Of a stretch of 64,000 nt of DNA, positions 1 to 53,670 are shown in pieces. The notes below the pieces were generated by a model. It was not told the origin of the DNA and made no database searches. It saw nothing but the letters and a program-made list of their open reading frames with translations. Position 1 is the first letter of the stretch; every line of letters starts with the position of its first letter. The position numbers and the translations under genes are program-made. Source of the stretch: Ilumatobacteraceae bacterium (GTDB taxonomy: Bacteria; Actinomycetota; Acidimicrobiia; Acidimicrobiales; Ilumatobacteraceae); contig JBMTET010000005.1 of assembly GCA_049433365.1 (NCBI GenBank), positions 1,108 to 65,107 on the forward strand, written 5' to 3'.

Positions 1-162
1 AGCGTGCCGGGCACGCAGGTGCGCGAGGGAGCGGGAACACCCGGCGATCAAGTGGGAATCTACGCCGACATCTCGCGGGCACGTTCGACTCTCGGATGGG
101 AGCCAAAAGTAGCTCTGCGTGACGGTGTCGCGAGTTTCGTGGAGTGGGCGCGGACTCGGTGA
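1..162 (+). CDS. NAD-dependent sugar epimerase/dehydratase, C-terminal fragment (5' end outside window)
   Basis: Frame-1 ORF runs in from the left edge to TGA 160-162. The tail ...STLGWEPKVALRDGVASFVEWARTR resembles SDR-type sugar epimerase C-termini. Confidence 0.5.
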   Translation, partial: SVPGTQVREGAGTPGDQVGIYADISRARSTLGWEPKVALRDGVASFVEWARTR

Positions 163-1784
163 CCGCTTTCCCGCCTGACGTTGTCAACGACTGCGAGAAT
201 CGTCGACGCGAGTTGACCGATCGCTACGTTGCGGCGATTGCAGCAGTCGGCCAGTCACGGATCGGTGGCGTGCCGCTTGCGGAGCTGTTCACGGTGGATG
301 GAATCGACGCGTGGGCGGCGAGTTCGTTGCGCGAAAGCAGCCTGTGGACGGCCGACAATTATTTTGCGCGGATCACAGCCTTGGCCGGTGACGGTGCGGT
401 TGCGTCACCGCAACCGGTCGTGCAGTGGCGCTCCAGGCTTGCGGCCCTTGCTTACGCAGCGCGAGCGCTGGCACAAGCGCCACGACGACGAGCGCCGCAA
501 CTTGGTGCGGGTGACGTCATATTGGTTGATTATGCGACGAAATCACTGGCGTCCGAACCGTACGTGTCGCCTTACTTCGGCGCCTTGCCTGCCGAGTTGC
601 ATCGCGACGGCCGTCGAATCTCCTGGTTGCATCTCACGTCGAGTGGTGCACCGACGTCGTTGACCACCGAAGAGCGACGCTGGATGAACCGACACGGTGA
701 CACCGGACAACACGCGTTTCTCTACCGGTGGATCACCCCCGGGACGGTCGTTGTTGCAGTACGTAGTTGGCTCAAGCTGCAGCGACACGCTCCGAGCTGG
801 TCGACAGTCGTTGATGCATCGAATTCTGCAGATGTACGGCGTCTCGCCGGGTTGTTGCGGAACGACTACGTGCGCAGCGTGAACGGCACCACGTCGATGC
901 GAACGCTGATCCTCGGTTACGCACTTCGCCGCGCCATGAGCCGTGTGCCGAAATATTCCGTGGTCATCCACCCCTTCGAAGGACAGGGATGGGAGACGTT
1001 GCTCATCAACGAGTGCGCTCGTCACGATATTCGATGTGTGTCGTACCTGCACACGATCGTCAAGCCGTGGGATGTTCGTGCGGCAACTGCCTTTGGTTGC
1101 GTGAAACCAAAGCATCTCGTGGTGCACGGTCGCCACGACGAAGCCGAGGTGACCCGTGTCGGTCTCGTGCCGTACACGGCCGAAGCGCTGCGGTACCTGC
1201 ATCTCGCCCGGCAGCCGGCGAGAACCACGGCACCCGGTGCACCGGTGCTGTTCGTTGGCGGAGCGGATTGCGAGCAATCGATGCAGCTGTTCAACGACAT
1301 CGTCACTGCACACTCGGCACGCAACTCGGCGTTTCCGCTGTGGGTGAAATGGCATCCGCAGTGCGTTGCACACACGCCGGCGAGTCCGCACGTCACGGTT
1401 GTCACCGATCCGCTCGATGCATTGTTCCCACGGGTGCGGGCTGTGATTCTGGCGGCAACGGCCGCACCTCTCGACAGCTACTTGGCGGGAGTTCCGACAT
1501 GCAGCGTGGTGCCGCCGGGAACTTTTTCGACGAACCCGCTCACACCCGACGCAACGTATTTCGTTGCCCGAGATGCGGCCGAGGCGGTCGCATGGGCGGC
1601 GGGTGTGCATTCAATATCACTGACGGAGGATGCAGAACAGTCAGGCGCTGACATCGGCTTGTCAGCGACGCAATCCGGCAACGGTGCACCGGACATTGCC
1701 CAGTGGTTCGTCATCGGTCCCGACTTGCCCCGCTGGAGGGCGCTGATCGACAACCTGACCGGTCAGCGCAGCGACGCGAGATAA
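144..1784 (+). CDS. Large uncharacterised surface-carbohydrate biosynthesis protein; putative GT-B-like ulosonic-acid transferase
   Basis: 546-aa ORF with GTG start. Layout is PVLFVGG ... LWVKWHPQ (K-x-HP) ... AVILAATAAPLDSYLAGVP, similar to KpsS/sialyltransferase-type GT-B enzymes. Its 3' end overlaps the convergent kdsB paralog by 22 nt. Function is inferred. Confidence 0.55.
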   Translation: MGADSVTAFPPDVVNDCENRRRELTDRYVAAIAAVGQSRIGGVPLAELFTVDGIDAWAASSLRESSLWTADNYFARITALAGDGAVASPQPVVQWRSRLAALAYAARALAQAPRRRAPQLGAGDVILVDYATKSLASEPYVSPYFGALPAELHRDGRRISWLHLTSSGAPTSLTTEERRWMNRHGDTGQHAFLYRWITPGTVVVAVRSWLKLQRHAPSWSTVVDASNSADVRRLAGLLRNDYVRSVNGTTSMRTLILGYALRRAMSRVPKYSVVIHPFEGQGWETLLINECARHDIRCVSYLHTIVKPWDVRAATAFGCVKPKHLVVHGRHDEAEVTRVGLVPYTAEALRYLHLARQPARTTAPGAPVLFVGGADCEQSMQLFNDIVTAHSARNSAFPLWVKWHPQCVAHTPASPHVTVVTDPLDALFPRVRAVILAATAAPLDSYLAGVPTCSVVPPGTFSTNPLTPDATYFVARDAAEAVAWAAGVHSISLTEDAEQSGADIGLSATQSGNGAPDIAQWFVIGPDLPRWRALIDNLTGQRSDAR

Positions 1785-2506
1785 GTGCGAGCGCGCTCGA
1801 GATCGTCGGGCGTGTCGATGGCAATTCCGACCGACGGCACCTCGATCATCTGAACTTTCAAGCCCAACTCGACGAATCGCAGAATTTCGATGTCCTCGAG
1901 CCGTTCGAGCGGAGTCTTCGCACCGTGTGCGGCGAAACGAGCCAAGGCATCACCACGGAAGGCGTACATGCCGATTTGTCGATGTGCTCCCCGGAACTCG
2001 AGAGCCTTGGTCGTGGGGATGGCGCCGCGGCTCATGTACAGCAGTCGCTCCGACTGATCCATGACGACTTTGGGCACGGTGACACTGCGAAAGTCCTCTT
2101 CCGTCGCGATGGGTGAGTACGCATTGACGACGGCGACGTCCGCGGTCTGAGCCGGGAGTGAGCGCACGAGTGCTCGCAGGGCCTCGGGGTCGAGAAACGG
2201 CTCGTCACCCTGCACGTTCACATACCATTCGGCCGATCGTCGTCGCGCCACTTCGGCGACACGATCGGTACCGGTGAGACACGCATCGCTCGTCATCTCG
2301 ATGTCGATGGAGAGTGAACGGCACGCGTCGGCGATGCGATCGTCATCGGTGGCAACGACGATCTGCGCACGCGGGAAGACCTGCAACACCTGCGAGTAGC
2401 AGCGGTCGATGACGGTGCGTCCGCCGAGATCGGCGAGTGCCTTGCCGGGGAAGCGAGTCGACGCGTAGCGAGCCGGGACGACGACGAGCAGGCCGTCGAG
2501 ATTCAC
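1763..2506 (-). CDS. kdsB: 3-deoxy-manno-octulosonate cytidylyltransferase-like (CMP-Kdo synthetase family), paralog 1
   Basis: Motifs VVVPARYASTRFPGKALADLGGRTVI and VNVQGDEPF. I chose GTG 2506 because it overlaps the upstream stop (GTGA at 2503-2506); the ORF-track N-terminal extension is Arg-rich and unlikely to be real. Confidence 0.85.
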   Translation of the reverse strand: MNLDGLLVVVPARYASTRFPGKALADLGGRTVIDRCYSQVLQVFPRAQIVVATDDDRIADACRSLSIDIEMTSDACLTGTDRVAEVARRRSAEWYVNVQGDEPFLDPEALRALVRSLPAQTADVAVVNAYSPIATEEDFRSVTVPKVVMDQSERLLYMSRGAIPTTKALEFRGAHRQIGMYAFRGDALARFAAHGAKTPLERLEDIEILRFVELGLKVQMIEVPSVGIAIDTPDDLERARTYLASLR

Positions 2507-4122
2507 GGGGCGAAGATCGACTGCTGGCGCACCGGATACGTGGTGCGGGTGATGGACACGACGGCTGTGTCGGGTGCGAGAGCGGAGAAGTTGCGCAGCG
2601 TGTCGAGCATCATCGCCTGACGCGGATCGCCGTCGGAGTAGCCGTCGAGACCGGCGAGCCACACGCGCTTGGCCTCGCCGTAGTGGGCGAGTGCAAGTGC
2701 ATAACCGGCAACGACCGGCTGCGGGATGACGACACCCCGGTCGTTCATCGACATGGAGTTCTGTTCGACGCTCACGCCGACGTCGCGCAACGACTTCACC
2801 GAGATCTCAAGTTCACGCAGCAGGGCGGCCGGGGCGACAACTTCGCAGTCAAGCTCCGATAGCGCAACGGCGTCCATAACGGCTCGTTCGGGATGGCAGA
2901 CGACGACGGCATCCACCAGCGTCGGATCGATCGGGACGTGAGCATTAAGCCCAACGACAAAGGGCGAGTTGCGACGAATGAACATCTCGATCTCGGCCCG
3001 CTTTGCGCGCGCCTCGGGGCCGTTGCCAACGAGGAGAACCTCGCGGGCATTGCACCAACCGGAAACGTTGGCTCCACCCGGATACCGCAGCGACGCACCT
3101 TCCACCGCCTCGGTGAGACGACGAATGTCGAAGCTCGACGCACCACGTTCGCCGAGCTTGTCGAGTGCACCGACGATTTCGGTGGGTGAGTAGCGGTCGT
3201 CCTTCGTCAACTCCATGACGTACGTGGGGTGGATCGAGCGGTTCGCCGACATGAAGTAGTAGAGGTTCGAACCCCACTCGTAAGTACGTCGAAGATCGGC
3301 GAAGTCGCGCTCGACGAGATTGACGAGGGGGGCGACGACGGCGTTGGTGCGCCCCTGCGCGGCAAGTTCCATGACGAGATATTCGGTGCGCACGTTGCCG
3401 GGACCGCGGCCCATGCCCTGCACAGTTGCGTCGGCAATGACGACCCCCGCACCGACTGCCTCCATCGTGTTCGTCAGTGCGTACGACATGTTGTCGTGGA
3501 GGTGGCAGCCGACCTCGGGACCGAACCCGTCGATGAGCGCCGAGATGATCGGACGGACACCGCTCGGACGCAGCGAGCCGAACGAGTCGGCAACGTACGC
3601 GTACATACTGCCGAACGACTTCGCCTTACGACCGAACGCCGTGACGTCGGCGAGTGGTCGATCGGTCACCTGCATGAGATTGAGCGCAACGCCGTAGCCG
3701 AGTTCACGCAACTCTTCGATGGCCGGGCCGAGGGCGTCGACTTCGTTCACGGTGGCGGCGATGCGCACGAGGGATACCTTCGAGCGTGATCGCGGGGCGA
3801 AGTGACGGCGCAACGTGACGCGCGGGTCGGCCGACGCGTTGATCTCTTTCGCGTTGAGCATGACGGCGAGTGCGAGCGAGTCGGGAACGTTCACTGCATC
3901 GATGAACTCGTCGGTGGTGAACGCCGTGGCACCGAGGTACTTGTCGGTGGCGAGGGTGCGAAAGCCCAGTTCGCAGACGTCGATACGTGCCGCCGCCATG
4001 GCGTCGACGTAGCGCGACACGAGGTCGAAGGCGTAGTCCCAGTCGTTGTAGTACCCACCGTCGCGCAGGGTGCAATCGAGGATTTTCACCGGTACGGAAA
4101 CGCCCGTCGTCACGGCTTTCAT
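2503..4122 (-). CDS. HMGL-like (DRE-TIM) pyruvate aldolase domain fused to a C-terminal Cst-II/Maf (GT42/DUF115)-like domain
   Basis: N-terminus has VKILDCTLRDGGYYNDW, typical of HMGL-like/DmpG aldolases. C-terminus has VLLVGNGPEA and VAGYALALAHYGEAKRVWLAGLDGY. Start could be ATG 4122 (MKAVTT) or ATG 4158. Confidence 0.8.
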   Translation of the reverse strand: MKAVTTGVSVPVKILDCTLRDGGYYNDWDYAFDLVSRYVDAMAAARIDVCELGFRTLATDKYLGATAFTTDEFIDAVNVPDSLALAVMLNAKEINASADPRVTLRRHFAPRSRSKVSLVRIAATVNEVDALGPAIEELRELGYGVALNLMQVTDRPLADVTAFGRKAKSFGSMYAYVADSFGSLRPSGVRPIISALIDGFGPEVGCHLHDNMSYALTNTMEAVGAGVVIADATVQGMGRGPGNVRTEYLVMELAAQGRTNAVVAPLVNLVERDFADLRRTYEWGSNLYYFMSANRSIHPTYVMELTKDDRYSPTEIVGALDKLGERGASSFDIRRLTEAVEGASLRYPGGANVSGWCNAREVLLVGNGPEARAKRAEIEMFIRRNSPFVVGLNAHVPIDPTLVDAVVVCHPERAVMDAVALSELDCEVVAPAALLRELEISVKSLRDVGVSVEQNSMSMNDRGVVIPQPVVAGYALALAHYGEAKRVWLAGLDGYSDGDPRQAMMLDTLRNFSALAPDTAVVSITRTTYPVRQQSIFAP

Positions 4123-4163
4123 CGTACCGATCGGGCCGAGGCGTTGCCGGACGTACACGTACT

Positions 4164-4631
4164 GTGGAGGCCGTGGATGACGTGCTCGCGATGCGCGAAG
4201 CCCTCGGCGAAGCGCAGTTGGCGGTGCAGCACGAAGACGTTCCCGTGGGTGCGGTCGTCGTTCGCGAAGGTCGGGTCATTGCCCGGGCGCACAACGAACG
4301 CGAGTTGCGCGGCGACCCGACAGCTCACGCCGAAATTCTCGTGCTGCGTTCTGCCGCGGAGGTCGTGGGTGGTTGGCGCCTCAGCGGGTGCACGCTCTAC
4401 GTCACGCTCGAGCCGTGCGTGATGTGCGCCGGGGCGATACAGCAGTCGCGCATCGACCGAGTGGTGTTTGGCGCCGCCGATTCGAAGGGTGGTGCGACGG
4501 GAACGTTGTACAACGTCGCTGCGGATCCGCGGCTGAACCACGAAGTCGTCGTCACGCACGGTGTGCTCGCCGATGAAAGTTCGCGACTACTTTCCGAGTT
4601 TTTCGCGATGCATCGCAACGCCGACCGATAG
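4164..4631 (+). CDS. tadA: tRNA-specific adenosine deaminase
   Basis: Zinc motifs HAEILVL and LEPCVMCAGAI. Start is GTG 4164, with ATG 4191 as the alternative. Divergent from the aldolase-fusion gene. Confidence 0.9.
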   Translation: MEAVDDVLAMREALGEAQLAVQHEDVPVGAVVVREGRVIARAHNERELRGDPTAHAEILVLRSAAEVVGGWRLSGCTLYVTLEPCVMCAGAIQQSRIDRVVFGAADSKGGATGTLYNVAADPRLNHEVVVTHGVLADESSRLLSEFFAMHRNADR

Positions 4632-4642
4632 CCTTCCCGAAC

Positions 4643-4732
4643 GGAAGGGTGCCAGAGCGGCCGAATGGGACGGTCTCGAAAACCGTTGTGGGTTTGTGCC
4701 CACCGTGGGTTCAAATCCCACCCCTTCCGCCA
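4643..4732 (+). tRNA. tRNA-Ser (anticodon CGA), long variable arm, CCA encoded
   Basis: Acceptor GGAAGGG/CCCTTCC. Anticodon stem ACGGT/ACCGT with loop CTCGAAA. T arm GTGGG-TTCAAAT-CCCAC. Discriminator G followed by CCA. Confidence 0.9.
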
Positions 4733-6337: not shown

Positions 6338-7669
6338 ATGTCCGCCGACGACCTTGACGATGTGTGGGACGATGAGGACGAAGACGAGTCCGAAGACGAG
6401 GTAGATGGTGAACTCACCTATTCGGTGACGGAATTCCTCGATGAAGTGCAGGGCGTACTCACCCGTGAGCTGCGCGGGGCGTGGGTGCAGGGTGAAATCG
6501 CCGATTTCAAGCCGACCCGGTCGGGGCACACGTACTTTTCGCTCATTGAAGAGGACGACGAGGGTCGACGGTGCGTCCTCAACGTCAACTACTGGCGCGG
6601 GAAACAGGCCCAACTCACTCCGAAGCTCGCCCGGCACGGTCTCGTACTGGCCGACGGGCTGCAGGTGCGGCTGCGGTGCACGCCGAACATTTACAAGGTG
6701 CGCGGGTCGTTCAGCGTGTCACTCGACGACATCGACCCACGCCACTCGTTGGGAGAGCTGCTCGGCAAGCGCGACGCGTTGTTGCGCAAGTTGCGCGAGG
6801 AGGGATTGTTCGACCTCAACCGGCAGCTCGATCTACCCCGGGTGCCACTGCGCATCGCACTCGTGACGAGTCGCGGAACGGCCGCGCACGCCGACGTGAT
6901 GAAGACGTTCATCCAGTCGCAGCTTGGTTTCAGCATCTTCGAATACGACGTGCGCGTGCAGGGTGACGAAGCCGCGGAGATGGTTGCCGATGCCGTTCGG
7001 GCGGCGAGCATGCGCAAGGACATCGACGTCGTGATGATCGTGCGCGGAGGAGGAGCGAAGAACGAACTCGCCACCTTCGACGACGAACGGATTGCGGTGG
7101 CAATCGCCCGGTGCGCGCACCCGGTCGTCACCGGTATCGGGCACGAGATCGACCTCAGCGTCGCCGACGAAGTGGCTTTCGAGCATCACAAGACCCCGAC
7201 GTTTTGTGCCGTCGCTCTCATTCGCCGTGTCGAGGAGTTTCTTGCCGAGGTGAATGAGGCATGGACCCGTATCGCCCGTGAAGCAAACGATTCCCTCGAT
7301 CTCGCACTTGCCGAACTTGATACAACGTCGGCGTCGTTGCGCAGTGCGGTTCTCGGCGCGCTCGGCTCGTCGGAACGGCGCATGGCGGTGAATGTCGATC
7401 GTCTGCGACGCGGCGGTGCGCGCCGGCTCGAGCAGGCAACGGCACTCGTCGATACGCATGCCGCCCGCGTGCGACTGCTCGACCCGCAAACGATGCTCGG
7501 TCGGGGTTGGAGCATCACGACCGACGCGTCGGGCCGTGCGGTGCGTGATGCCGCACGACTGAAAGTCGGTGACTCATTGACCACACGCGTCGCGAACGGA
7601 ACCGTGACGAGCACCGTTACCGGCACGAGCGATGCGACGCCCGCCGACACCGAGCCACGAAGCAAGTGA
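6338..7669 (+). CDS. xseA: Exodeoxyribonuclease VII large subunit
   Basis: OB-fold N-terminus YSVTEFLDEVQGVLTRELRGAWVQGEIADFKPTRSGHTYFSL. Followed directly by xseB. Confidence 0.9.
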   Translation: MSADDLDDVWDDEDEDESEDEVDGELTYSVTEFLDEVQGVLTRELRGAWVQGEIADFKPTRSGHTYFSLIEEDDEGRRCVLNVNYWRGKQAQLTPKLARHGLVLADGLQVRLRCTPNIYKVRGSFSVSLDDIDPRHSLGELLGKRDALLRKLREEGLFDLNRQLDLPRVPLRIALVTSRGTAAHADVMKTFIQSQLGFSIFEYDVRVQGDEAAEMVADAVRAASMRKDIDVVMIVRGGGAKNELATFDDERIAVAIARCAHPVVTGIGHEIDLSVADEVAFEHHKTPTFCAVALIRRVEEFLAEVNEAWTRIAREANDSLDLALAELDTTSASLRSAVLGALGSSERRMAVNVDRLRRGGARRLEQATALVDTHAARVRLLDPQTMLGRGWSITTDASGRAVRDAARLKVGDSLTTRVANGTVTSTVTGTSDATPADTEPRSK

Positions 7670-7690
7670 CGAGCGAATAGGGTCGGGAGC

Positions 7691-7924
7691 ATGGCGACGG
7701 AGAAGTCGGCGAAGAAAGCCGCAAAGAGCGACGAGATCGGATACGAAGACGCGCTCGCCGAACTCGAGGCGATCCTCGAGGACATCGAGGGCACCGATGT
7801 CGATGTCGACGTGCTCGGCGAGCGGGTGAAGCGTGCCGCGGAGCTCGTGAAAGTGTGTCGTGATCGCATTGCGGCGGCAAAACTCCACGTCGAGCAAGTG
7901 GTTGCAGACGTGGAAGACGAGTAA
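7691..7924 (+). CDS. xseB: Exodeoxyribonuclease VII small subunit
   Basis: 77 aa with YEDALAELEAILEDIE, typical of XseB. Sits immediately downstream of xseA. Confidence 0.9.
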   Translation: MATEKSAKKAAKSDEIGYEDALAELEAILEDIEGTDVDVDVLGERVKRAAELVKVCRDRIAAAKLHVEQVVADVEDE

Positions 7925-7946
7925 GTCGGAGTCGTAGTCTGATGAT

Positions 7947-9005
7947 GTGATTTCCGCACCGACCTCGTTGCGTGACATCGCAGCGCGGGTCGATGAGCGG
8001 TTGCGCGGGTTCCTTGCCGCCGAACGTGTTCGCTGGACCGCACTCGACCCCGATACCGAAGTGCTCGTCGCCGAGTTAGAGCGGATGGTGCTTGCAGGAG
8101 GCAAGCGGTTACGACCGGCATTTACCCACTGGGGATTCGTCGGTGCGGGTGGTGATGCGGCCGATCCGCGCGTCGTTGATGCCGGTGCCGCTTTCGAATT
8201 GATGCACGCCTTTGCCCTGTTTCACGACGACATCATGGACGGCTCGCTCACGCGTCGCGGTGCGCGAACGACGCACGAAGTGCACAAAGAGCGGCACACA
8301 ACCGACCGACTCGCCGGCGATGCCCGGCGCTTCGGTGACGGCGTGGGAATTCTCGTCGGCGACCTTGCCTTTGTGTATGCCGATGCGATGCTCGTCGGCT
8401 CGTCACCTCAGGTGTGGTCGATGTGGAACGAGCTGCGCATCGAACTCAACGTTGGCCAGTACCTCGACATGCTCGGTTCGGCGCGCACCGAACGCAGTCG
8501 CGCGAAGGCCGAGCGAATCTGTCGCTACAAGAGCGGCAAGTACACGATCGAACGACCGTTGCATCTCGGTGCGTTGCTCGCCGGACCGGAGAACGCCGAC
8601 CAACTGCTGACTGCGTACTCGGCCTACGGCCTGCCGCTTGGTGATGCGTTCCAGATGCGCGATGACGTGATGGGTGCATTCGGTGACCCGGTGGTGACCG
8701 GCAAGCCCGTCGGTGATGATTTGCGCGAAGGCAAGCCGACGCCGCTCATGGCAATCGCCGTTGCGCGCGCCGATGCGGCGCAGCGACGTATGCTCGACCG
8801 AGTCGGTGCCGGACCGCTGTCGGATGTCGAAGTCGCCGACGTGCAGGCGGTCATTCGTGCCACCGGTGCACTCGACGAGATGGAAGCGACGATCGACCGA
8901 CTCACGACGCAAGCCATCGATGCGATCACCGCAGCACCGGTCACCGCCGATGCACGTGCGGCCCTCGTTGATCTCGCCAACTTCGTGGCACAAAGGAGCG
9001 TGTGA
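7947..9005 (+). CDS. crtE: Polyprenyl (geranylgeranyl) diphosphate synthase
   Basis: First and second Asp-rich motifs: FHDDIMDGSLTRRG and FQMRDDVMG. Stop overlaps the crtI start (GTGA). Confidence 0.85.
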   Translation: MISAPTSLRDIAARVDERLRGFLAAERVRWTALDPDTEVLVAELERMVLAGGKRLRPAFTHWGFVGAGGDAADPRVVDAGAAFELMHAFALFHDDIMDGSLTRRGARTTHEVHKERHTTDRLAGDARRFGDGVGILVGDLAFVYADAMLVGSSPQVWSMWNELRIELNVGQYLDMLGSARTERSRAKAERICRYKSGKYTIERPLHLGALLAGPENADQLLTAYSAYGLPLGDAFQMRDDVMGAFGDPVVTGKPVGDDLREGKPTPLMAIAVARADAAQRRMLDRVGAGPLSDVEVADVQAVIRATGALDEMEATIDRLTTQAIDAITAAPVTADARAALVDLANFVAQRSV

Positions 9006-10483
9006 TGCGTGTCGTCGTCATCGGTGCGGGACTCGGCGGACTCTCCGCGGCCGCACATCTTTCCCGTCAGGGGCACGATGTCACCATTGTCGAACGCGAC
9101 GCCCATCCGGGTGGGCGAGCGGGAATCATCGAAGCACAGGGGTTCCGACTCGACAACGGACCCACCGTACTGACGATGCCGAACCTGCTCGAAGAGGCGT
9201 TCAACGCGGCCGGTGCCGACATGGCGTCGTACGTGACGATCAAGAAGGTCGATCCGATGTACCGCGCGGTGTACGCCGACGGCAGCGAGCTGATGGTGCG
9301 CCACGGTCGCGAAGAGATGGCGGCGGAAATCACCCGCTTCGCCGACGCGCGCGAGGGCGAGAGTTTCATCCGCTTTTGTGCCTGGTTGGAGAAGTTGTAC
9401 GCAGCCGAGATGTCGTCGTTCATCGACGTCAACTTCAACTCGCCACTCGACCTCATCAAACCGTGGAAGGCGGCACTGTCGCTCGTGAAAATGGGCGCGT
9501 TTCGCAAACTCGACCACAAGATCGCGAGCTTCTTCCGCGACGAACGCCTGCAGCGCATCTTCAGTTTCCAGGCGATGTACGCCGGTCTCGCGCCGTACGA
9601 GGCGCTGTCGCTGTACGCGGTGATCACCTACATGGACTCGGTGGAAGGCGTGTACTTCCCCGAGGGCGGAATGCACGCGATGGCGACTGGTCTCGCGAAC
9701 GCCGTCACCAAAGCGGGTGTGCAGATTCGCTACAACGCACCGGTCACACGAATTTTGCGCAGCACCGGCTCGAGCGGTGCGGTGACCGGTGTCGAGTTGG
9801 GCGGCAGCGTGCGCGTGCCCGCCGATGCGGTGGTGTGCAACGTCGACCTGCCCGTTGCGTACCGCACGTTGCTCGGAGGTGTCGAAGCACCACGCGCGGC
9901 GCGCAAGGGCAAGTACAGCCCGAGTTGCGTGCTGTGGGTGGCAGGTGTGCGGGGCACGCCTCCGCCGCAGGCAGCGCACCACAACATTCACTTCGGTGCC
10001 GATTGGAACGGTGCGTTCAAGGCGCTCATCGACGACGGCGTGCGCATGCCCGACCCGTCGATTCTCGTCACGCTGCATTCACTCGACACGGTCGGTCTCG
10101 CACCCGAGGGTCACTCGTCGTTGTACGTGCTCGAACCCACGCCGAACCTCGACGGGCGCATCGACTGGTCGCGCGAACGCGACCGGATCACGGGCGACAT
10201 TCGGCAACGCGTTGCGTCGCTCGGTTATCCGACCGACGTCGTGTTGGAGCGCGTGTACGACCCGGTCGATTGGGAAGCACTCGGCATGGAGCGGGGCACA
10301 CCGTTCGCCCTTGCGCACACCTTCCGCCAGACGGGTCCGTTCCGACCGAACAACGTCGACAAGCGGGTGCCCGGCCTCGTGTTCACCGGTTCGTCGACCG
10401 TACCCGGCGTCGGCGTACCGATGGTGCTCGTATCGGGCAAACTCGCCGCACAGCGTGTCGCCGAGATTGCGGACAAGCGTTGA
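9002..10483 (+). CDS. crtI: Phytoene desaturase
   Basis: FAD fold VVVIGAGLGGLSAAAHL...ERDAHPGGRAG; C-terminal GSSTVPGVGVPMV. Confidence 0.9.
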   Translation: MMRVVVIGAGLGGLSAAAHLSRQGHDVTIVERDAHPGGRAGIIEAQGFRLDNGPTVLTMPNLLEEAFNAAGADMASYVTIKKVDPMYRAVYADGSELMVRHGREEMAAEITRFADAREGESFIRFCAWLEKLYAAEMSSFIDVNFNSPLDLIKPWKAALSLVKMGAFRKLDHKIASFFRDERLQRIFSFQAMYAGLAPYEALSLYAVITYMDSVEGVYFPEGGMHAMATGLANAVTKAGVQIRYNAPVTRILRSTGSSGAVTGVELGGSVRVPADAVVCNVDLPVAYRTLLGGVEAPRAARKGKYSPSCVLWVAGVRGTPPPQAAHHNIHFGADWNGAFKALIDDGVRMPDPSILVTLHSLDTVGLAPEGHSSLYVLEPTPNLDGRIDWSRERDRITGDIRQRVASLGYPTDVVLERVYDPVDWEALGMERGTPFALAHTFRQTGPFRPNNVDKRVPGLVFTGSSTVPGVGVPMVLVSGKLAAQRVAEIADKR

Positions 10484-10519
10484 AGCGATTCCCGGCAAGC
10501 CAACGGCAGTAGCAGCGCG

Positions 10520-11419
10520 ATGACGAAGCAGGCCCCGACGCCCACAACGCACCTGTTGCCGAAGCATCCCTTGACGATGCAGGAGTCGTACGAGTTGTGC
10601 CGCGACTTCAACAAACGCCACGGAACGACGTATTACTGGGCAACGAAGGTGCTGCCTCCCGACAAGCGGCCGCACGTGCACGCCTTGTACGGGTTTTGCC
10701 GTTACGCCGACGACATCGTCGACGATCTCGGTCCGGTGCCGGTGGAGGATCGCACCGCGGCGCTCGCGTCGTTCGGCGAGAGATTCTTTCGCGACCTTGC
10801 CGCCGGACGATCGGATGACCCCGTGCTCATGGCGGTGGTCGACACGGTGCGCAAGTTTGCGATCGACCCCGACTGTTTCAGGCGCTTCCTGCGCAGCATG
10901 ACGATGGATCTCACGGTCGAAAAATACGAAACGTGGGACGACCTGCTCGTGTACATGGACGGTTCGGCGGCCGTCATCGGCGAAATGATGCTGCCGATCC
11001 TCGAACCAACGTCGGCGGCCGCGTTGCAACCCGCCCGCGACCTCGGCAACGCGTTTCAACTCACGAACTTCTTGCGCGACATCAACGAGGATCTCGATCG
11101 CGGACGCGTGTACGTACCGCAGGAGGACGTGCGTCGATTCGGGGTCGACTTGTCGAAGCGCACGGTGACCCCGGAATTCGTCGCGCTCATGCGGTTCGAA
11201 ATCGACCGCTGCCGCGAGTTGTACCGCTCGGCCGATGTCGGCATCGACATGTTGCCCGGACGATCGGCACGCTCGATTCGTGCCGCGCGGGTCTTGTACG
11301 GCCGGATCCTCGAGCGCATCGAAGCCCAGAACTACGACGTGTTCAGCCGGCGAGCTTCGGTTCCGACACGGAGCAAGGCGATCATGGTTGCGAAGTTGCT
11401 CCTGTCGCCGCGGCGGTGA
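10520..11419 (+). CDS. crtB: Phytoene synthase
   Basis: YGFCRYADDIVDD and FQLTNFLRDINEDLDRGRVYVP motifs of squalene/phytoene synthases. Confidence 0.9.
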   Translation: MTKQAPTPTTHLLPKHPLTMQESYELCRDFNKRHGTTYYWATKVLPPDKRPHVHALYGFCRYADDIVDDLGPVPVEDRTAALASFGERFFRDLAAGRSDDPVLMAVVDTVRKFAIDPDCFRRFLRSMTMDLTVEKYETWDDLLVYMDGSAAVIGEMMLPILEPTSAAALQPARDLGNAFQLTNFLRDINEDLDRGRVYVPQEDVRRFGVDLSKRTVTPEFVALMRFEIDRCRELYRSADVGIDMLPGRSARSIRAARVLYGRILERIEAQNYDVFSRRASVPTRSKAIMVAKLLLSPRR

Positions 11420-11421
11420 AC

Positions 11422-12180
11422 ATGACGCGGCGGCGCATCGCCACGTGGGCGTTTCTTCTCGCGGTGGTCGCAATGATCGCGACACCGTTGTTCGAACTCG
11501 CGGGCAACGAGCGACGAGTACTGGCCCACGTCGTGGTGGTTGCACTGTGTGCAGCGGTCGTTGCCGCTACGGCAACCGCGGTCGGAGTGGTGCGCGCAGT
11601 GCTCGGATCGGTCATCGTCGCGGTGACGACGTACCTCGTGGAGTTGCTTGGACACACGCGCGGCGTGCCGTTCGGCGAATACGACTACTCCGACCGACTG
11701 TGGCCCCAAGTGGCGGGAGTGCCGCTCATCGTGCCACTCGCCTGGGTGGCGATCACATGGTGCGGATGGGCCGTGGCGCGCAAGATTGCGACGCGGTTCG
11801 TCACCCGCGTCGTCGTTGCCGCATGGAGCATCACGGCGTGGGACTTGTTCCTCGATCCGCAAATGGTCGGCGAGGGTTACTGGACTTGGCAGGCGGCCGA
11901 ACCGGCATACCGCGACATTCCGCTCACGAATTTCGTCGGGTGGTTCGTCACCGGGCTCGTCGTTGCGGCAATCACGACGGTCATCGCCGGTCGCCAGGGG
12001 CGGGAGGTGTACGCGGGGGTCGCACGACTCGTGCTGGTGTACACGACGTTGTGGGTGTTGTCGACGATCGGATTTCTCTTCTTCTTTGATGACGCGCTCG
12101 TTGCACTCGTCGGTGGCGTGGGAATGGGGCTTCCTGCGTTGGCGTCGTGGCGTCCGCGGCCCGAGGAGCCGGCATTGTGA
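11422..12180 (+). CDS. Carotenoid biosynthesis membrane protein (DUF422 / CruF-like carotenoid 1,2-hydratase family)
   Basis: Polytopic protein with LLGHTRGVPFGEYDY and AWDLFLDPQMV. ATG 11422 lies just after the crtB stop; the longer ORF-track reading (from 10933) overlaps crtB and is rejected. Confidence 0.7.
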   Translation: MTRRRIATWAFLLAVVAMIATPLFELAGNERRVLAHVVVVALCAAVVAATATAVGVVRAVLGSVIVAVTTYLVELLGHTRGVPFGEYDYSDRLWPQVAGVPLIVPLAWVAITWCGWAVARKIATRFVTRVVVAAWSITAWDLFLDPQMVGEGYWTWQAAEPAYRDIPLTNFVGWFVTGLVVAAITTVIAGRQGREVYAGVARLVLVYTTLWVLSTIGFLFFFDDALVALVGGVGMGLPALASWRPRPEEPAL

Positions 12181-17222: not shown

Positions 17223-18449
17223 GTGGTGCGTCGCGACGAGCGCTCGTGGGTGTTCGTCGTTCGGGGTGCGCCCGACATCGACAACATCATCCCCGTTGCC
17301 TGGGCGGCGGCGCAGCAAGGTCGGCATGTCGTAGTCATCGTCGCAAGTCGTTACGCGTCGGATCGTGATCGGCGGTTCGGCTTGCTGGCCGGGTGTGCTC
17401 ACGTTGCCGTCATGCAGCTTCCCGAGGCGGACGTGGCTACGGGATGGGGACGTTTGCAACGTGTGCGCTGGTGCCGACTAAGGGTACGACGACTGTTGCG
17501 ACGGATCAATGCGGGGCTGGTGTGCGTGGAATGGGGCGACGGAATCACCGGTGAGTCGACGTCGCTTCTTGCGGGGCTGAAGAAGCGAGTCCTGTCCGAT
17601 TTCGTATTGCAGGTGCAATATGCCGCGCGCGACCTCGGTATTTTGACCGTCGCCCTGCCGCACGGCCACAGCGTGAAAACGAACCTCGTGCGCAGCCCGC
17701 ACGTTCAGGCCGCTCTCGATGCACACGGCGGAAAGTTGCCCTTCTCCAATCGGGATTCTTTCGCCGCCTACGTGTTCTGCTCGGAGTACCACCGTGACGT
17801 CATCGTCTCCAACTCGACGATGAGCGGACGCAACGCAGTGGTGTGGGGCAGCGCACGGTTCAGCGAAGCATGGATTGCCCAACTCACCGCACTCACCGCC
17901 GGAACGGTGACGATCGCCCGGCGGGCGAACACGCGGCGGGTGCTGTTCTTCGTGCCGAAGTGGCACAACCTCGTCGATCGGGCGGGTACGATCGAGTTGC
18001 TCACCGCGCTGTCGCGCGACCCTCGTCTGCACGTATTGGTGAAGGCGCACCCGCGCGCCGATCACACGTCGCTCACTGTCGACGAGCGGTCGGCGCTCAC
18101 CGGCGGCGGATCACTCGAGTTCATCGAGGGGCCGGCCGAATCGGCTGCCCTTCTCGGTGAATGCGACGTGCTCGTCGACGTGGACTCGAGCATCGCACTC
18201 GACGCGGTGGTGCGCGGAATTCCCTACGTGCGGCCGAGATGGTTGCAGGACGCATCGGTGACGACGATCTGGGACCGCAGCTCCGTCGCGCACCAACCGG
18301 CGTCGCTGCGCGAGACGATCGAGCTGCTCACGAGTGACGGGTTGACGGGCGGGGTCCCCGACAATGCGTTCATCGACGAAGTGATCGGTGGTCGCGGAGC
18401 TGCACCGCTTGAGCGCTACGTCGCCGAACTCGCGCGCATCGCCCGCTAG
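17223..18449 (+). CDS. Putative GT-B transferase with K-x-HP motif (KpsS/KpsC/sialyltransferase-like layout)
   Basis: 408 aa. RRVLFFVPKW ... HVLVKAHPRADH ... CDVLVDVDSSIALDAVVRGIPYV. Function is inferred from motif order and the Kdo operon context. Confidence 0.5.
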   Translation: MVRRDERSWVFVVRGAPDIDNIIPVAWAAAQQGRHVVVIVASRYASDRDRRFGLLAGCAHVAVMQLPEADVATGWGRLQRVRWCRLRVRRLLRRINAGLVCVEWGDGITGESTSLLAGLKKRVLSDFVLQVQYAARDLGILTVALPHGHSVKTNLVRSPHVQAALDAHGGKLPFSNRDSFAAYVFCSEYHRDVIVSNSTMSGRNAVVWGSARFSEAWIAQLTALTAGTVTIARRANTRRVLFFVPKWHNLVDRAGTIELLTALSRDPRLHVLVKAHPRADHTSLTVDERSALTGGGSLEFIEGPAESAALLGECDVLVDVDSSIALDAVVRGIPYVRPRWLQDASVTTIWDRSSVAHQPASLRETIELLTSDGLTGGVPDNAFIDEVIGGRGAAPLERYVAELARIAR

Positions 18450-19345
18450 GCGTTACCTGCATGTTAGCTAAGTCATTGATGTCGCAAAATCATCTACGAT
18501 TATTGATAATGAACGTGTTTCTCAAAATTGGTCGTCAAGCACTTGTGTTGGGATTTGATCCAAGAAAGACGCTTGCCGTCCTCCGGCACGGGCGCCAAGT
18601 TTGGAGCGACCGACGAGAATTTCACAGGCAACTTAAGATCAGTCGGTTCGCAGGAGATTTTGCCACGGGTTCACAGTGGCTTTTTTTTGAGGATCGTTTC
18701 GACAATGCCGGGACTGCATCGGGACACTACTTCCATCAAGATCTGTTGGTTGCGCACGCCATTTTCAAGAATCAACCGAAACGACATGTGGATGTAGGCA
18801 GTTCAATATATGGATTCGTATCTCATGTTGCCAGCTTTCGTGAGATTGAAGTTATAGATGTTCGCCCTTTACCTGACACCGTCCACGGAATCAAATTCCG
18901 ACAAATGGATATAACCGACATTGAAAGTGTTCCTGAGAGGGTCTGTGACTCCCTTTCATCTCTGCACGCCGTAGAGCATTTCGGGCTAGGCCGTTACGGA
19001 GATCCCATAGATGCTGATGGTTGGTACAAAGGATTAAAAAGCTTTGCAAAAATGCTCATTGCTGGCGGCACTTTGTACTTCTCTGTGCCAACATCGAAGC
19101 ACCAACGAGTCGAATTCAACGCACATCGCGTATTTTCTGTGCCATTTCTTGAGAAGGTTCTGACTGAGGATTTTGAGGTCGAGGAAATCAGTTTTGTAAA
19201 CGACGAAGGTTCGGTGATAACCAATTGCTCTCTGACCGACAAAGATTTTCGCGATTCCTTTGGTTGTGAGTACGGCTGCAGTATTTGGACTTTGAAGAAG
19301 AAAGAGAAGTACCAGGCATCTTGATTGTCTGAGTCCCGTCTCTGA
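18450..19345. other. AT-rich compositional island carrying a single gene
   Basis: Hand counts: the 60-nt lines starting at 18481 and 19021 have 22/60 and 23/60 G+C, against 36/60 for the flank line starting at 18361. The boundaries coincide with the neighbouring gene ends. Confidence 0.75.
18461..19324 (+). CDS. DUF268-like class I SAM-dependent methyltransferase (horizontally acquired)
   Basis: VDVGSSIYGF (SAM motif I-like) and SLHAVEHFGLGRYGDPIDADGW, which matches the EH-GLGRYGD-ID signature I recall for DUF268. The start may be ATG 18509 instead. Confidence 0.7.
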   Translation: MLAKSLMSQNHLRLLIMNVFLKIGRQALVLGFDPRKTLAVLRHGRQVWSDRREFHRQLKISRFAGDFATGSQWLFFEDRFDNAGTASGHYFHQDLLVAHAIFKNQPKRHVDVGSSIYGFVSHVASFREIEVIDVRPLPDTVHGIKFRQMDITDIESVPERVCDSLSSLHAVEHFGLGRYGDPIDADGWYKGLKSFAKMLIAGGTLYFSVPTSKHQRVEFNAHRVFSVPFLEKVLTEDFEVEEISFVNDEGSVITNCSLTDKDFRDSFGCEYGCSIWTLKKKEKYQAS

Positions 19346-20209: not shown

Positions 20210-21835
<1,626 letters not shown>

Positions 21836-48887: not shown

Positions 48888-48964
<77 letters not shown>

Positions 48965-48988
48965 AATTTTCGTCTAACTTCCCTGTCG

Positions 48989-50659
48989 GTGACCCGACTG
49001 CTGCGAACCCCCGTGAGTTGGGTCGTTGCTGCAAACGTGGCGTTGTTCGTGTGGTTGACGGGAGGTCGGATTCTGTGGCCGGGTCACGTGTCGTGGTTGA
49101 TGTGGGGTGATTCCGCACAGCACTATCTCGGCTGGGAGTTTTTTCGCCGCGGTCCCTTGACGGTGTGGCCTCCCGGTGCATCGCCGTTGTTCGGTGTCGG
49201 GTATTCGAGTTCGGTGGTGTACGCCGACGCAATCCCGCTTCTTGCCTTGCCGATGAAGTTCCTGTTGGCATTTACGGACGCGCAATTTCAGTACTTGGGT
49301 GCGTGGTTGTTGGCGTGCTTCGTGTTGCAGGGAGTTTTTGCCGTGATGCTCCTGCGCCGTTTCGGTGTGGACGGTCCGGTGCTCGTGCCGGGTGCGTTGT
49401 TGTTCTCGATCGCACCTGTGTTCTTGTATCGGATGGTGACCGGAAGTCACGGTCACATGGCCCTTGTCGGACATTTTTTCGTGCTGTGGGCTCTGTGGCT
49501 GGTTCTGGACCTCCGGCTTTCACATCGACGCTGGCTGGTGGTGCTGCTTGTGTCGTTGCTCGTGCAGTTTTACCTGTTCGTCATTGTCGGCTACTTCTAC
49601 ATGGTTGCTATCGGCTGGTGGGTGTGGCGTCAACGCAGTGAGCGTCCCTGGTCGACAGTCAGTCGAAGTGTCGTGGTGAACGTGTCGACGGTGGTAGTTG
49701 TTGCGTATCTCGCGGGTTACTTCATGGGCGGATCGAGCGTCGCCGATGGATTCGGCCAGTTCCGGACTGACATCGTCGGTTTCGTTGATCCGAGCCCCAA
49801 CGACTTTCCCGGATGGTCGGCGGTGCTGCCGAACCCCTACAACGTCGACGGAACGCACGAGGGGTACGCATTCCTCGGATCGGCGACACTCATTCTCGTT
49901 GTGGCGGCAATCGTCGGTGGACTACTTCGTCGGTCACGAATCGATACTCGTCTCACCGTTCTCGCAGCTGCCTCGGCGCCGCTCTTTCTGCTCGCGTTGA
50001 CGAACCGCCTGCAGTTCGCCGGCCGTGAGGTGGGTGCCTTGCCGTTACCCGCCGGTGTGGAGACGTTGCTCAACGTCGTGCGCGCAACTGGACGTTTTTC
50101 GTGGCCAATCGTGTATGTATTCATGTGCAGCGCAATTGTCATGCTGATTCGGGTAGTGCCGCATCGGGTGACCATCACCGCTGTTGTATCGGTAGCTCTC
50201 GTCATACAGTTGGTCGATTCGCGAACGGCGCTGGCTGAAGTGAACGAGAGATTCGTCGAGAGTTCCCGCGAGGAAACGTATCTCCGCGATGCCCGCTGGG
50301 CGACGATCGCCGAGGGGGCAACGTGTCTCGTCGTAAGCCCACCGCAAGTGAAAGGTCCCTACTGGCGGGATTTCGCCGAGTATGCGGTGCTCAACGGAAT
50401 GTCGACGAACGTGTCGTATCTCTCCCGCTGGGATCAGAGCGTCGTTGAAGCCCTGGCCGAGCGAACTGCCGAGCGCATTGATTCACTCGACCTCGACGAC
50501 GGCTGTCTGTACGTGATGATCATCGATCGCGGACAATCCTCCGTCGCGGAAGCCGACTACCTTCGCACCACGGCTGGCCAGGACAAAGAACATGACTACG
50601 TCATTGACGTCGTTGACGACTTCGTCGTTCTGAAGAAATTGGCCGATTCGTCGTCGTGA
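48989..50659 (+). CDS. Large polytopic membrane protein (DUF6311-like; GT-C-like glycosyltransferase candidate)
   Basis: 556 aa, about 10 TM segments followed by a soluble C-terminal domain. GTG start 25 nt after the tRNA-Met. Family assignment is from memory of DUF6311-like N-termini (WGDSAQHYLGWEFFR). Confidence 0.55.
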   Translation: MTRLLRTPVSWVVAANVALFVWLTGGRILWPGHVSWLMWGDSAQHYLGWEFFRRGPLTVWPPGASPLFGVGYSSSVVYADAIPLLALPMKFLLAFTDAQFQYLGAWLLACFVLQGVFAVMLLRRFGVDGPVLVPGALLFSIAPVFLYRMVTGSHGHMALVGHFFVLWALWLVLDLRLSHRRWLVVLLVSLLVQFYLFVIVGYFYMVAIGWWVWRQRSERPWSTVSRSVVVNVSTVVVVAYLAGYFMGGSSVADGFGQFRTDIVGFVDPSPNDFPGWSAVLPNPYNVDGTHEGYAFLGSATLILVVAAIVGGLLRRSRIDTRLTVLAAASAPLFLLALTNRLQFAGREVGALPLPAGVETLLNVVRATGRFSWPIVYVFMCSAIVMLIRVVPHRVTITAVVSVALVIQLVDSRTALAEVNERFVESSREETYLRDARWATIAEGATCLVVSPPQVKGPYWRDFAEYAVLNGMSTNVSYLSRWDQSVVEALAERTAERIDSLDLDDGCLYVMIIDRGQSSVAEADYLRTTAGQDKEHDYVIDVVDDFVVLKKLADSSS

Positions 50660-50664
50660 GACGA

Positions 50665-51276
50665 TTAGCGACGATGCTGTCGTCGGGTTGACTTTCCCTG
50701 CGGAAGCATTCGACGTCGCTGCAATCTGTTGCGAAGGGGCGCGACGGCGAGACGTGACGCCAAGCCGATGAGCAGCGTAAAGATGAGTGCACGGCCCCAC
50801 AGCGGTATCGCCCCGAGCGTGGGCCCGACGATGACGTTGAAGGCGAGACTAACGGGGTAAATCCACAACAGTTCGGAAAAGAACCGACCGAACCGCGTGC
50901 GATGCGGTGTACTCGTTGTTTGCGAACGGAAGAACTGCTCTTCTCCTGCGGTGACCGTCACGCGCTCGGTGACGACGAACTGATCGAGTGCGCGGATCAG
51001 CCGTTCGCGGTCCTCACTTCGTTCCCATCGTCGCAGGTGCAGGGCATCAACGAAGCGAAACACCATGTGGTACTCGTCGGATTCGGTGCCCGGATGAAGA
51101 AGCGTGGCACCGAGACAACCGGGGAACGAGCGAACCGCATCAGCGAGAGTTTCGGATGCCGCGACGAACTCAGCTGAAGTCCCCGGTTTGATCGTTCTCG
51201 CAACCGTCACGGTGACGGCTCCGGCGGCGATTTGTGGAAGCTTTGCGGTGTCGAAAGACCCCGTCAATTCGGGCAT
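50665..51276 (-). CDS. ABM (antibiotic biosynthesis monooxygenase)-domain protein with C-terminal TM segments
   Basis: Ferredoxin-like ABM pattern (VTVARTIKPG...YHMVFRFVD...RRWERSEDR), then two hydrophobic helices. Confidence 0.6.
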   Translation of the reverse strand: MPELTGSFDTAKLPQIAAGAVTVTVARTIKPGTSAEFVAASETLADAVRSFPGCLGATLLHPGTESDEYHMVFRFVDALHLRRWERSEDRERLIRALDQFVVTERVTVTAGEEQFFRSQTTSTPHRTRFGRFFSELLWIYPVSLAFNVIVGPTLGAIPLWGRALIFTLLIGLASRLAVAPLRNRLQRRRMLPQGKSTRRQHRR

Positions 51277-51362
51277 GGTTTCACCGTACCCACCGTCGGT
51301 TCCGACGTGCGGAATGCCCGACTCGTAGACTGAGGAACGATCCTTGCGATCATGTGACCACG

Positions 51363-53642: not shown

Positions 53643-53670
53643 CACCAACCCGTAGCGTGGGTGTCTCAAC

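Follow-up and report, generated by a model that had tools for sequence, protein, structure and literature searches.

Introduction

To our knowledge, every established bacterial route to 3-deoxy-manno-octulosonate (Kdo) and to the sialic, legionaminic and pseudaminic acids spends phosphoenolpyruvate (PEP) in a KdsA- or NeuB-type synthase. In the KdsA–KdsC–KdsB and NeuB/NeuA pathways a three-carbon unit is joined to an aldose or aldose phosphate, a HAD enzyme carries out dephosphorylation, a cytidylyltransferase of the CTP_transf_3 family activates the acid and the activated sugar is used for a surface glycan. Here we analyse a 64,000-nucleotide stretch of DNA from an Ilumatobacteraceae bacterium (contig JBMTET010000005.1, positions 1,108 to 65,107 of the forward strand; the whole stretch is referred to as the window), in which a gene for a fused aldolase–DUF115 protein lies beside a gene for a KdsB-family cytidylyltransferase. 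The module to which this gene pair belongs would follow the same general plan, and its cytidylyltransferase is a close relative of KdsB and KpsU. It differs from the KdsA and NeuB pathways in that the enzyme predicted to form the C–C bond is a metal aldolase, HMGL-like and related to DmpG, that presumably uses pyruvate, rather than a PEP-dependent synthase, and in that this enzyme carries an extra DUF115 domain. Unlike the Kdo pathway, the module is also found in Gram-positive bacteria and Actinomycetota, which lack lipopolysaccharide.

Two other groups of described proteins resemble the halves of the fusion. The pyruvate aldolases DmpG and BphI, the best characterised sequence relatives of the N-terminal half, have the same TIM barrel and the same Arg-Asp and His-x-His metal and pyruvate residues. 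Maf, Cst-II (GT42), the archaeal MptE-type 6-hydroxymethylpterin pyrophosphokinase and SteA share with the C-terminal half a Rossmann-like nucleotide-binding fold, an N-terminal G-x-G-P strand and a later G-x-D-G/F-Y motif. The domain described here is, however, much diverged from all of these, stands obligately behind an aldolase and has no visible equivalent of the catalytic His188 of Cst-II; it is also shorter than Maf and Cst-II.

On balance, we lean towards the view that the fusion protein and the cytidylyltransferase form the core of a widespread module that makes a 3-deoxy-2-ulosonic acid, Kdo-like and activated with cytidine monophosphate (CMP), for a cell-surface glycan. An earlier reading of this DNA, made from the sequence alone (the sequence-only reading), had proposed a pyruvate-aldol route to such an acid, with activation by the neighbouring enzyme and transfer by the fused domain, and had noted no known characterised example of the architecture. 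The open-access literature that we searched bears out the last point, as no paper on the aldolase–DUF115 fusion or on the gene pair was found in it. The fusion family appears to be uncharacterised and the predicted chemistry appears to be new within CMP-ulosonate biosynthesis; among the many members of this family, the window gene itself is unexceptional.

The fusion gene and the cytidylyltransferase gene overlap

The fusion gene occupies positions 4122..2503 of the minus strand and encodes 539 aa plus a stop codon; in the translation of its open reading frame (ORF), an HMGL-like aldolase domain precedes an MptE-like/DUF115 domain. The ORF begins with ATG at 4122 and ends with TGA at 2505..2503. 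A longer version starting from GTG at 4158 is possible, but the ATG start is supported by the closest fusion homologue, which is 92% identical, covers 100% of the protein and is likewise 539 aa long. Most fusion relatives have lengths of 529–541 aa. The motifs on which the sequence-only reading was based lie at residues 14–24 (ILDCTLRDGGY; 4083..4051), residues 362–371 (VLLVGNGPEA; 3039..3010) and residues 471–495 (VAGYALALAHYGEAKRVWLAGLDGY; 2712..2638).

The cytidylyltransferase gene follows on the same strand (2506..1763; 247 aa). The predicted GTGA overlap is present at 2503..2506 (minus strand), where the TGA stop of the fusion gene (2505..2503) overlaps the GTG start of its neighbour (2506..2504). 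A short metagenomic contig encodes an identical protein, and the gene call made independently there has the same 247-aa start and the same 4-nt overlap. The translational coupling that had been read into this arrangement is suggested only by the overlap; the Shine-Dalgarno context of the GTG is weak, and, although the two genes are neighbours in the relatives compared, their spacing varies, with a gap of ∼24 nt in some and a 13-nt overlap in others.

The gene pair is the core of a widespread module

Among the scored candidates there were 4157 fusion homologues at E ≤ 1e-3, and the C-terminal domain alone formed 508 clusters at 50% identity. The fusion is carried by at least 591 species-representative genomes. 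Those listed include Gamma-, Alpha-, Beta- and Deltaproteobacteria, Pelagibacteraceae, Bacillaceae and Bacteroidota, together with Cyanobacteriota, Omnitrophota, Elusimicrobia, the candidate phyla radiation and Actinomycetota. The closest relatives of the window fusion come from metagenome-assembled genomes of freshwater Actinomycetota labelled Ilumatobacteraceae and Acidimicrobiia. In RefSeq, the fusion is named ‘aldolase catalytic domain-containing protein’ and its neighbour ‘3-deoxy-manno-octulosonate cytidylyltransferase’. No fusion homologue was found in 5,426 complete Escherichia coli genomes, so the module could not be linked to a known O- or K-antigen structure.

The fusion of the two domains is itself a constant feature. 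Of the 147 C-terminal domain representatives that we examined, 78 were full-length fusions. The majority of the shorter entries begin inside the aldolase region, as does every ∼240-aa entry that we read. The ∼240-aa entries had been taken as candidate stand-alone C-terminal domains, and were rejected as truncated gene calls, since they start at an internal methionine of the fusion (…YVMELTKDDRY…). Since the short entries reflect truncation, the aldolase–DUF115 fusion is essentially obligate.

To examine gene context we clustered the ORFs of 82 loci, 57 of which were well flanked. The co-occurrence with cytidylyltransferases that the sequence-only reading had led us to look for is pronounced: a KdsB-like cytidylyltransferase gene lies directly downstream of the fusion gene in 71 of the 82 loci and within 8 kb in 54 of the 57 well-flanked ones. 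The pairing is taken further in Rosetta-stone proteins, such as one of 781 aa, in which HMGL, DUF115 and CTP_transf_3 domains follow one another, and another such protein joins a DUF115 domain to a HAD domain. A HAD-IA phosphatase is encoded in 42 of the 57 well-flanked loci (HAD-a in 34 and HAD-b in eight). The surroundings are throughout of the surface-polysaccharide type, with GT2 and GT4 glycosyltransferases, Wzy, ABC capsule exporters, GDP-fucose genes, DegT aminotransferases and nucleoside diphosphate (NDP)-sugar epimerases. An aldolase–DUF115 gene beside a KdsB-family gene is a real two-gene core and is not unique to the window. NeuB is also present in 12 loci and, in those read (e.g. 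L025 and L061), has its own cytidylyltransferase alongside; the aldolase route would therefore be separate from the NeuB route. The window, too, has a distinct NeuB gene with a cytidylyltransferase gene of its own behind it (54327–56089).

Variations on this arrangement were also seen. In about eight loci a longer module, at ∼10–17 kb of each locus, has the order aldolase–DUF115, LdpA-like 4Fe-4S protein, HAD-b, HpcH/HpaI-type aldolase, cytidylyltransferase and TIGR04326-like protein, and the presence of two pyruvate-aldolase families and an Fe-S protein suggests a more elaborate acid. In nine loci from SAR11 single-cell genomes (Pelagibacteraceae), the fusion and cytidylyltransferase genes are accompanied by short-chain dehydrogenase/reductase (SDR) genes and by putative radical-SAM-like and B12-radical-SAM-like genes (labels guessed from sequence), which replace the HAD phosphatase.

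The N-terminal half is related to pyruvate aldolases

The DRE-TIM signature noted in the sequence-only reading falls within a match to the Pfam family PF00682 (HMGL-like) over residues 12–263 (E 1.9e-25; 90.2 bits against a cut-off of 29). Among solved structures, PDB entry 3dxi is the closest relative; it matches residues 12–322 at E 2e-41, or at E 3e-84 when a family profile is used, and these two matches define an aldolase part (3157..4089, minus strand) consisting of a TIM barrel and a helical subdomain. Entry 3dxi is the N-terminal domain of Bacteroides vulgatus BVU_2661, deposited as a ‘putative aldolase’, and shares the motif DCTLRDGGYY. It belongs to the same family as the window protein, but is an unpublished structural-genomics entry that covers the aldolase half only, and no paper citing it was found in the open-access literature searched.

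Profile alignment with DmpG (1nvm) places R20, D21, H207 and H209 opposite the DmpG residues R17, D18, H200 and H202. The metal and pyruvate ligands are thus present on alignment, and all four positions are at least 90% conserved across 79 diverse homologues. Among the NCBIfam models, the highest scores were those of 4-hydroxy-2-oxovalerate aldolases, although these were far below their cut-offs (NF006049 and TIGR03217; 110.6 against 229 and 91 against 286, respectively). Models for isopropylmalate and homocitrate synthases, HMG-CoA lyase and carboxyltransferases scored much lower than the aldolase models. The comparisons support a DRE-TIM/HMGL-like identity for the N-terminal half, with DmpG-type pyruvate aldolases as its nearest relatives among characterised enzymes. 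By the same comparisons it is not a DmpG orthologue: in addition to the low scores against the equivalog models, the DmpG residue His21 is replaced, no DmpG_comm domain was detectable in a profile scan of the fusion protein, and there is neither a DmpF partner nor an aromatic-catabolic or meta-cleavage context in the window or in the 82 fusion loci. A catabolic role of the DmpG type was rejected for the fusion on gene context and scores.

The acid produced might not be a sugar at all. A short 4-hydroxy-2-oxo acid, or the product of a Claisen-type or decarboxylase reaction, could provide a non-carbohydrate acidic substituent, or the enzyme could be catabolic as DmpG is. The HMGL-like superfamily does include isopropylmalate synthase, homocitrate synthases, HMG-CoA lyase and carboxyltransferases (all weaker matches), the catalytic His is replaced by Tyr, and the variant loci have, in addition, an HpcH aldolase and an LdpA-like Fe-S protein. 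Among aldolase-only relatives without DUF115, one on a Priestia megaterium plasmid adjoins meta-cleavage genes (extradiol dioxygenase, 4-OT and FAH), which would also fit. We nevertheless consider a non-sugar product improbable. The CTP_transf_3 enzymes characterised so far, as far as we know, all activate cyclic 2-ulosonic acids, and the window enzyme retains the KdsB motifs; the missing DmpF partner and aromatic-catabolic context, and the distance of the DmpG NCBIfam scores from their cut-offs, also argue against it. Another aldolase-only relative, on the plasmid pSym of a Paraburkholderia, lies beside two SDR genes, a phosphoserine-aminotransferase-like gene and a gene for a large HAD-IA protein.

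The neighbouring enzyme belongs to the KdsB family

The description of the neighbour as CMP-Kdo-synthetase-like held up well. The protein matches CTP_transf_3 (PF02348) at E 7.5e-37 (127.7 bits against a cut-off of 22.6) and passes the NCBIfam model NF009905 for the KdsB subfamily (265.3 against 255), while falling narrowly under the kdsB equivalog TIGR00466 (148.5 against 155.2). The PseF model gave only E 7e-6, and no NeuA-type model was in the NCBIfam match list. Of the proteins in the PDB, the window enzyme comes closest to 1gq9, the capsule-specific CMP-Kdo synthetase of E. coli (E 1.8e-38). In comparison with 1gq9 and 3oam, the motifs PARY..R..GK, GTDR, QGDEP, E..LR and DTP are kept, and the catalytic nucleotide and metal motifs among them (P-A-R..R..G-K, Q-G-D-E-P and D-T-P) are also kept in 58 cytidylyltransferases from the related loci.

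One motif is altered. The K-H-V/I-G-I-Y-A-Y of KdsB and KpsU becomes K-Q-V-C-I-Y-A-F in most module enzymes and R-Q-I-G-M-Y-A-F in the window. At the position that is His in both references, Gln is found in 36 of 59 enzymes and Asn in nine of 59, and His is not among the five commonest residues. The role of this His is not stated in PMC3149649. From these sequences, we read the substrate as Kdo-like but not necessarily Kdo.

A predicted pyruvate-aldol route to a CMP-activated ulosonic acid

The substrates and product, and the synthetic direction of the aldolase, are predicted as follows. The class-II, metal-dependent, DmpG-like aldolase would form a 3-deoxy-2-ulosonic acid by adding a pyruvate enolate to an aldose, free or phosphorylated, and would so replace the PEP-dependent KdsA- or NeuB-type synthase. 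Where the aldehyde is phosphorylated, a HAD phosphatase could remove the phosphate and make the step irreversible; this would apply to most related loci and not to the window. The KdsB-family enzyme would then form the CMP-sugar for the surface glycan. In the window, the aldehyde would probably come from an NDP-sugar handled by the adjacent SDR, and a GT-B protein of the TIGR04326 type may help to supply it, or may instead be a transferase. The fused DUF115/MptE-like domain is predicted to bind a nucleotide; its role is considered in the next section.

Within the hypothesis put forward in the sequence-only reading, the aldolase type, the activating neighbour and the fold of the fused domain stand, and transfer by the fused domain is no more than plausible. 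The idea of a pathway with no phosphate or PEP chemistry at all is doubtful, given the HAD phosphatase in 74% of the related loci.

Several observations weigh against the proposed pathway. Class-II pyruvate aldolases are reversible and usually catabolic. His21 of DmpG and BphI, which we take to be the catalytic base, aligns with Tyr24, a residue that is nearly invariant in the fusion family, and the aldolase chemistry may therefore differ. Given the change in the KdsB/KpsU motif, the sugar could be something other than Kdo. The four-gene cassette of the window lacks a HAD phosphatase, and with it the driving force that phosphate release would provide.

If the proposal is true, the pyruvate-aldolase route would be a new entry point to this class of ulosonic sugars and would give a function to the ‘aldolase catalytic domain-containing protein’ family, which has thousands of sequences and one orphan PDB structure. 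It would also imply an unrecognised acidic surface sugar on abundant freshwater and marine bacteria (acIV-type Actinomycetota, SAR11 and roseobacters) and on some Bacteroides and Bacillus, and would add to the functions known for the DUF115/Maf/Cst-II/SteA nucleotide-binding fold. With three genes, the module is small enough for a direct in vitro test.

The C-terminal domain has a divergent nucleotide-binding fold

The C-terminal domain (residues ∼345–539, ∼195 aa; 2506..3090, minus strand) was delimited from an AlphaFold2 model, Foldseek and profile searches as a divergent MptE-like/DUF115 domain. When residues 325–539 were searched alone, there was no match to Pfam (PF01973 and GT42 included, even at E ≤ 10) and no sequence match in the PDB, a result that counts against the overall proposal; of the two expected Pfam domains, HMGL-like was found in the window protein and DUF115 was not. 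However, a profile built from 26 homologues matched the C-terminal domain of Corynebacterium SteA (9hmz) at E 1.4e-5. When 39 diverse C-terminal domains were scanned individually, 16 matched PF01973 (MptE-like, formerly DUF115/Maf; best E 1.9e-5), while other Pfam families recurred in two at most.

The AlphaFold2 model of the domain had a pLDDT of 88.8 and a pTM of 0.85. Searched against the PDB with Foldseek, it gave SteA of two species (9hmz and 9hmy; E ∼1e-6, probability 1.0), the MptE-type 6-hydroxymethylpterin pyrophosphokinase of Methanocaldococcus jannaschii (8sd5; E 3e-4, probability 1.0, TM 0.54) and, lower down, Cst-II (1ro7 and 1ro8; probability 0.95 and 0.87, TM 0.38). No further match had both E < 0.01 and a probability above 0.5. 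The resemblance to Cst-II and the DUF115/Maf fold that had been noted in the sequence-only reading is therefore reproduced by structure and profile searches, and the domain is placed with SteA, MptE and Cst-II rather than with an unrelated fold. Its membership of the DUF115/MptE/SteA/Cst-II nucleotide-binding fold class, as a divergent member, is supported, and the model is structurally closer to the pyrophosphokinase and SteA than to Cst-II. No paper on the MptE structure was found in the open-access literature searched.

For direct comparison, the Cst-II sequence, verified against 2wqq, was aligned with hhalign. Residues 470–513 aligned with Cst-II residues 131–179 (probability 37%, E 3.6e-4), so that the S-G-x-Y...G-I-D-F-Y segment of Cst-II, the one cited in the sequence-only reading, has a counterpart in this region; GNGPEA at residues 366–371 is the counterpart of the G-N-G-P-S nucleotide loop. 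A comparison of 128 diverse sequences shows conserved polar positions at G368, N393, R/K413, D/E417, Y474, G491-F/L-D493-G494-Y/F495, D499, R/K501, T525, T/S527, Y529 and S535.

Our preferred reading, held tentatively, is that the domain acts like Maf and Cst-II, binding the CMP-ulosonate and transferring its sugar, which would make the fusion a bifunctional ‘make-and-attach’ enzyme. The bacterial DUF115/GT42 proteins of glycan loci (Maf and Cst-II) are CMP-ulosonate transferases, and the fold and profile matches are to this class. The domain is present in practically every locus with the module, whereas none of the other candidate transferases is universal, and in triple fusions it adjoins the CMP-forming domain. 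Set against this, no conserved His was seen at the sequence level downstream of the G-x-D-G motif in the 128 sequences that could correspond to the catalytic base His188 of Cst-II (the hhalign alignment ends before this residue), nor was a lid or acceptor domain seen. The TM score is lower to Cst-II than to the pyrophosphokinase, and an obligate fusion of a last-step enzyme to a first-step enzyme would be unusual.

Other proteins could also be the real transferase. Stand-alone DUF115/MptE-like proteins (255–300 aa, with an IIGNGPSL motif and PF01973 matches of up to E 9e-18) are encoded beside the module in ∼11 loci, with as many as four copies in a Bacillus sp., and are likely to be CMP-ulosonate transferases. 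TIGR04326-like GT-B proteins, a second type of candidate, are encoded in 16 of the 57 well-flanked loci, and the window is among the loci where one adjoins the module. Loci with these proteins are less likely to have HAD-a (odds ratio 0.19, p 0.015, uncorrected for phylogeny), while all eight HAD-b loci also have TIGR04326; the anticorrelation with HAD-a is suggestive only.

The domain might instead be an ATP-dependent (pyro)phosphokinase like MptE or thiamine pyrophosphokinase. It would phosphorylate the aldose or the aldol product, the HAD enzyme would dephosphorylate the product later, and an ATP-driven kinase–aldolase–phosphatase cycle, in place of PEP, would drive the pathway. Over the full domain, the structure that matches best is the MptE-type enzyme 8sd5, and the Pfam family match is MptE-like, but PF01973 also holds the Maf transferases, so the family name settles nothing. 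The conserved acidic positions D/E417, D493 and D/E499 may be compatible with Mg-ATP chemistry, and the frequency of HAD genes, together with the DUF115–HAD fusion, would suit such a cycle. HAD is, however, absent from 26% of the loci, the window island included, and sugar phosphates come from central metabolism without a dedicated kinase. We regard this role as a second choice, of low likelihood.

Much the same low likelihood attaches to a non-catalytic role, in which the domain would sense CMP-ulosonate, or cytidine triphosphate and CMP, and exert allosteric control over the aldolase as the committed step. GNE, which is feedback-controlled by CMP-Neu5Ac, would be an analogue. Obligate fusion to the first enzyme and the lack of a Cst-II-type catalytic His are what such a sensor would lead one to expect, and SteA, the closest solved relative, has no reported enzyme activity and is described as a putative phosphonucleotide-binding protein (PMC12977500). 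The SteA pocket is likened to the ATP (phosphonucleotide) site of thiamine pyrophosphokinase and, to a lesser degree, to the site where Cst-II binds CMP, and CgSteA is stabilised by GDP and UDP (PMC12977500). On the other hand, N393, D493, D499, R501 and T525 are conserved across phyla, which fits a catalytic site at least as well. A widespread PEP-independent CMP-ulosonate route with an as yet unassigned Kdo-like product on a wide range of environmental bacteria, in which the fused DUF115 domain either attaches the sugar or drives the aldol step through an ATP-dependent cycle of phosphorylation and dephosphorylation, is a possibility that we put forward with considerable doubt.

The cassette in the window

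The window cassette consists of four genes arranged as two convergent pairs. At the edge of the window lies the 3′ end of a gene for a GalE/LegB-like NAD-dependent epimerase/dehydratase of the SDR type (1..162, plus strand), which is cut by the window edge and was identified by synteny with locus L001, a 66%-identical relative. The full-length syntenic SDR in L001 matches the Pfam families Epimerase and RmlD_sub_bind and the NCBIfam models GalE (1e-38) and LegB (5e-33), both under cut-off.

The next gene (144..1784, plus strand) encodes the TIGR04326-like protein. The SDR stop codon TGA (160–162) overlaps a GTG at 159–161, and this GTG, rather than GTG 144, may be the true start. At its other end the gene is convergent with the cytidylyltransferase gene, the 3′ ends overlapping by 22 nt (1763–1784). 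The TIGR04326 profile matches at E 1e-30, but the score is under the cut-off (106.7 against 250); homologues with 33–60% identity are labelled TIGR04326 by JGI. An AlphaFold2 model (pLDDT 75) has a GT-B fold, for which the top Foldseek matches are NeuC and UDP-GlcNAc 2-epimerases, with a TagF-like capsule polymerase, the Kdo transferase WaaA, the Neisseria sialyltransferase NST and other GT-B enzymes lower down. The protein has an invariant K-W-H404-P405 motif. From the model, it could be a CMP-sugar transferase, or an NDP-sugar hydrolase providing the aldose in the manner of NeuC, LegG and PseG. Kinship with a LIC12162-family transferase encoded elsewhere in the window, which would have favoured the first of these, was considered and dropped, as no similarity was found.

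Immediately upstream of the fusion gene and divergent from it, at ∼4200–4732, are tadA (a tRNA adenosine deaminase-like ORF ending at 4631) and a tRNA-Ser(CGA) gene (4643–4732). In L001 these four genes are likewise flanked by tadA and, on the other side, by housekeeping genes, and this synteny indicates a four-gene island at a fixed, tRNA-adjacent site.

Other features of the window

A second, canonical nonulosonic-acid island is located ∼45 kb away at 48888–57612, directly after a tRNA-Met gene (48888–48964), and has a lower guanine plus cytosine (GC) content of ∼0.60. It encodes, in order, a DUF6311 protein (48989–50659), an Fe-ADH family protein (51234–52481), a PseC/LegC-like aminotransferase (52482–53642), a GT2 protein (53671–54330), a NeuB-family synthase (54327–55397), a second KdsB-like cytidylyltransferase whose match is confined to its N-terminal half (55394–56089) and the LIC12162-family transferase (56086–57612).

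Between the two islands, synteny with the Pfam-annotated L001 identified xseA (and probably xseB), polyprenyl synthase, phytoene desaturase, phytoene synthase and carotenoid-cyclase-like genes at 6338–12180. The GC content dips to 0.557 at 18–20 kb. An ORF at 17223–18449 had no Pfam match and one at 18461–19324 had only a weak match to DUF268 (methyltransferase-like); a Cpn60 gene follows at 20213–21835.

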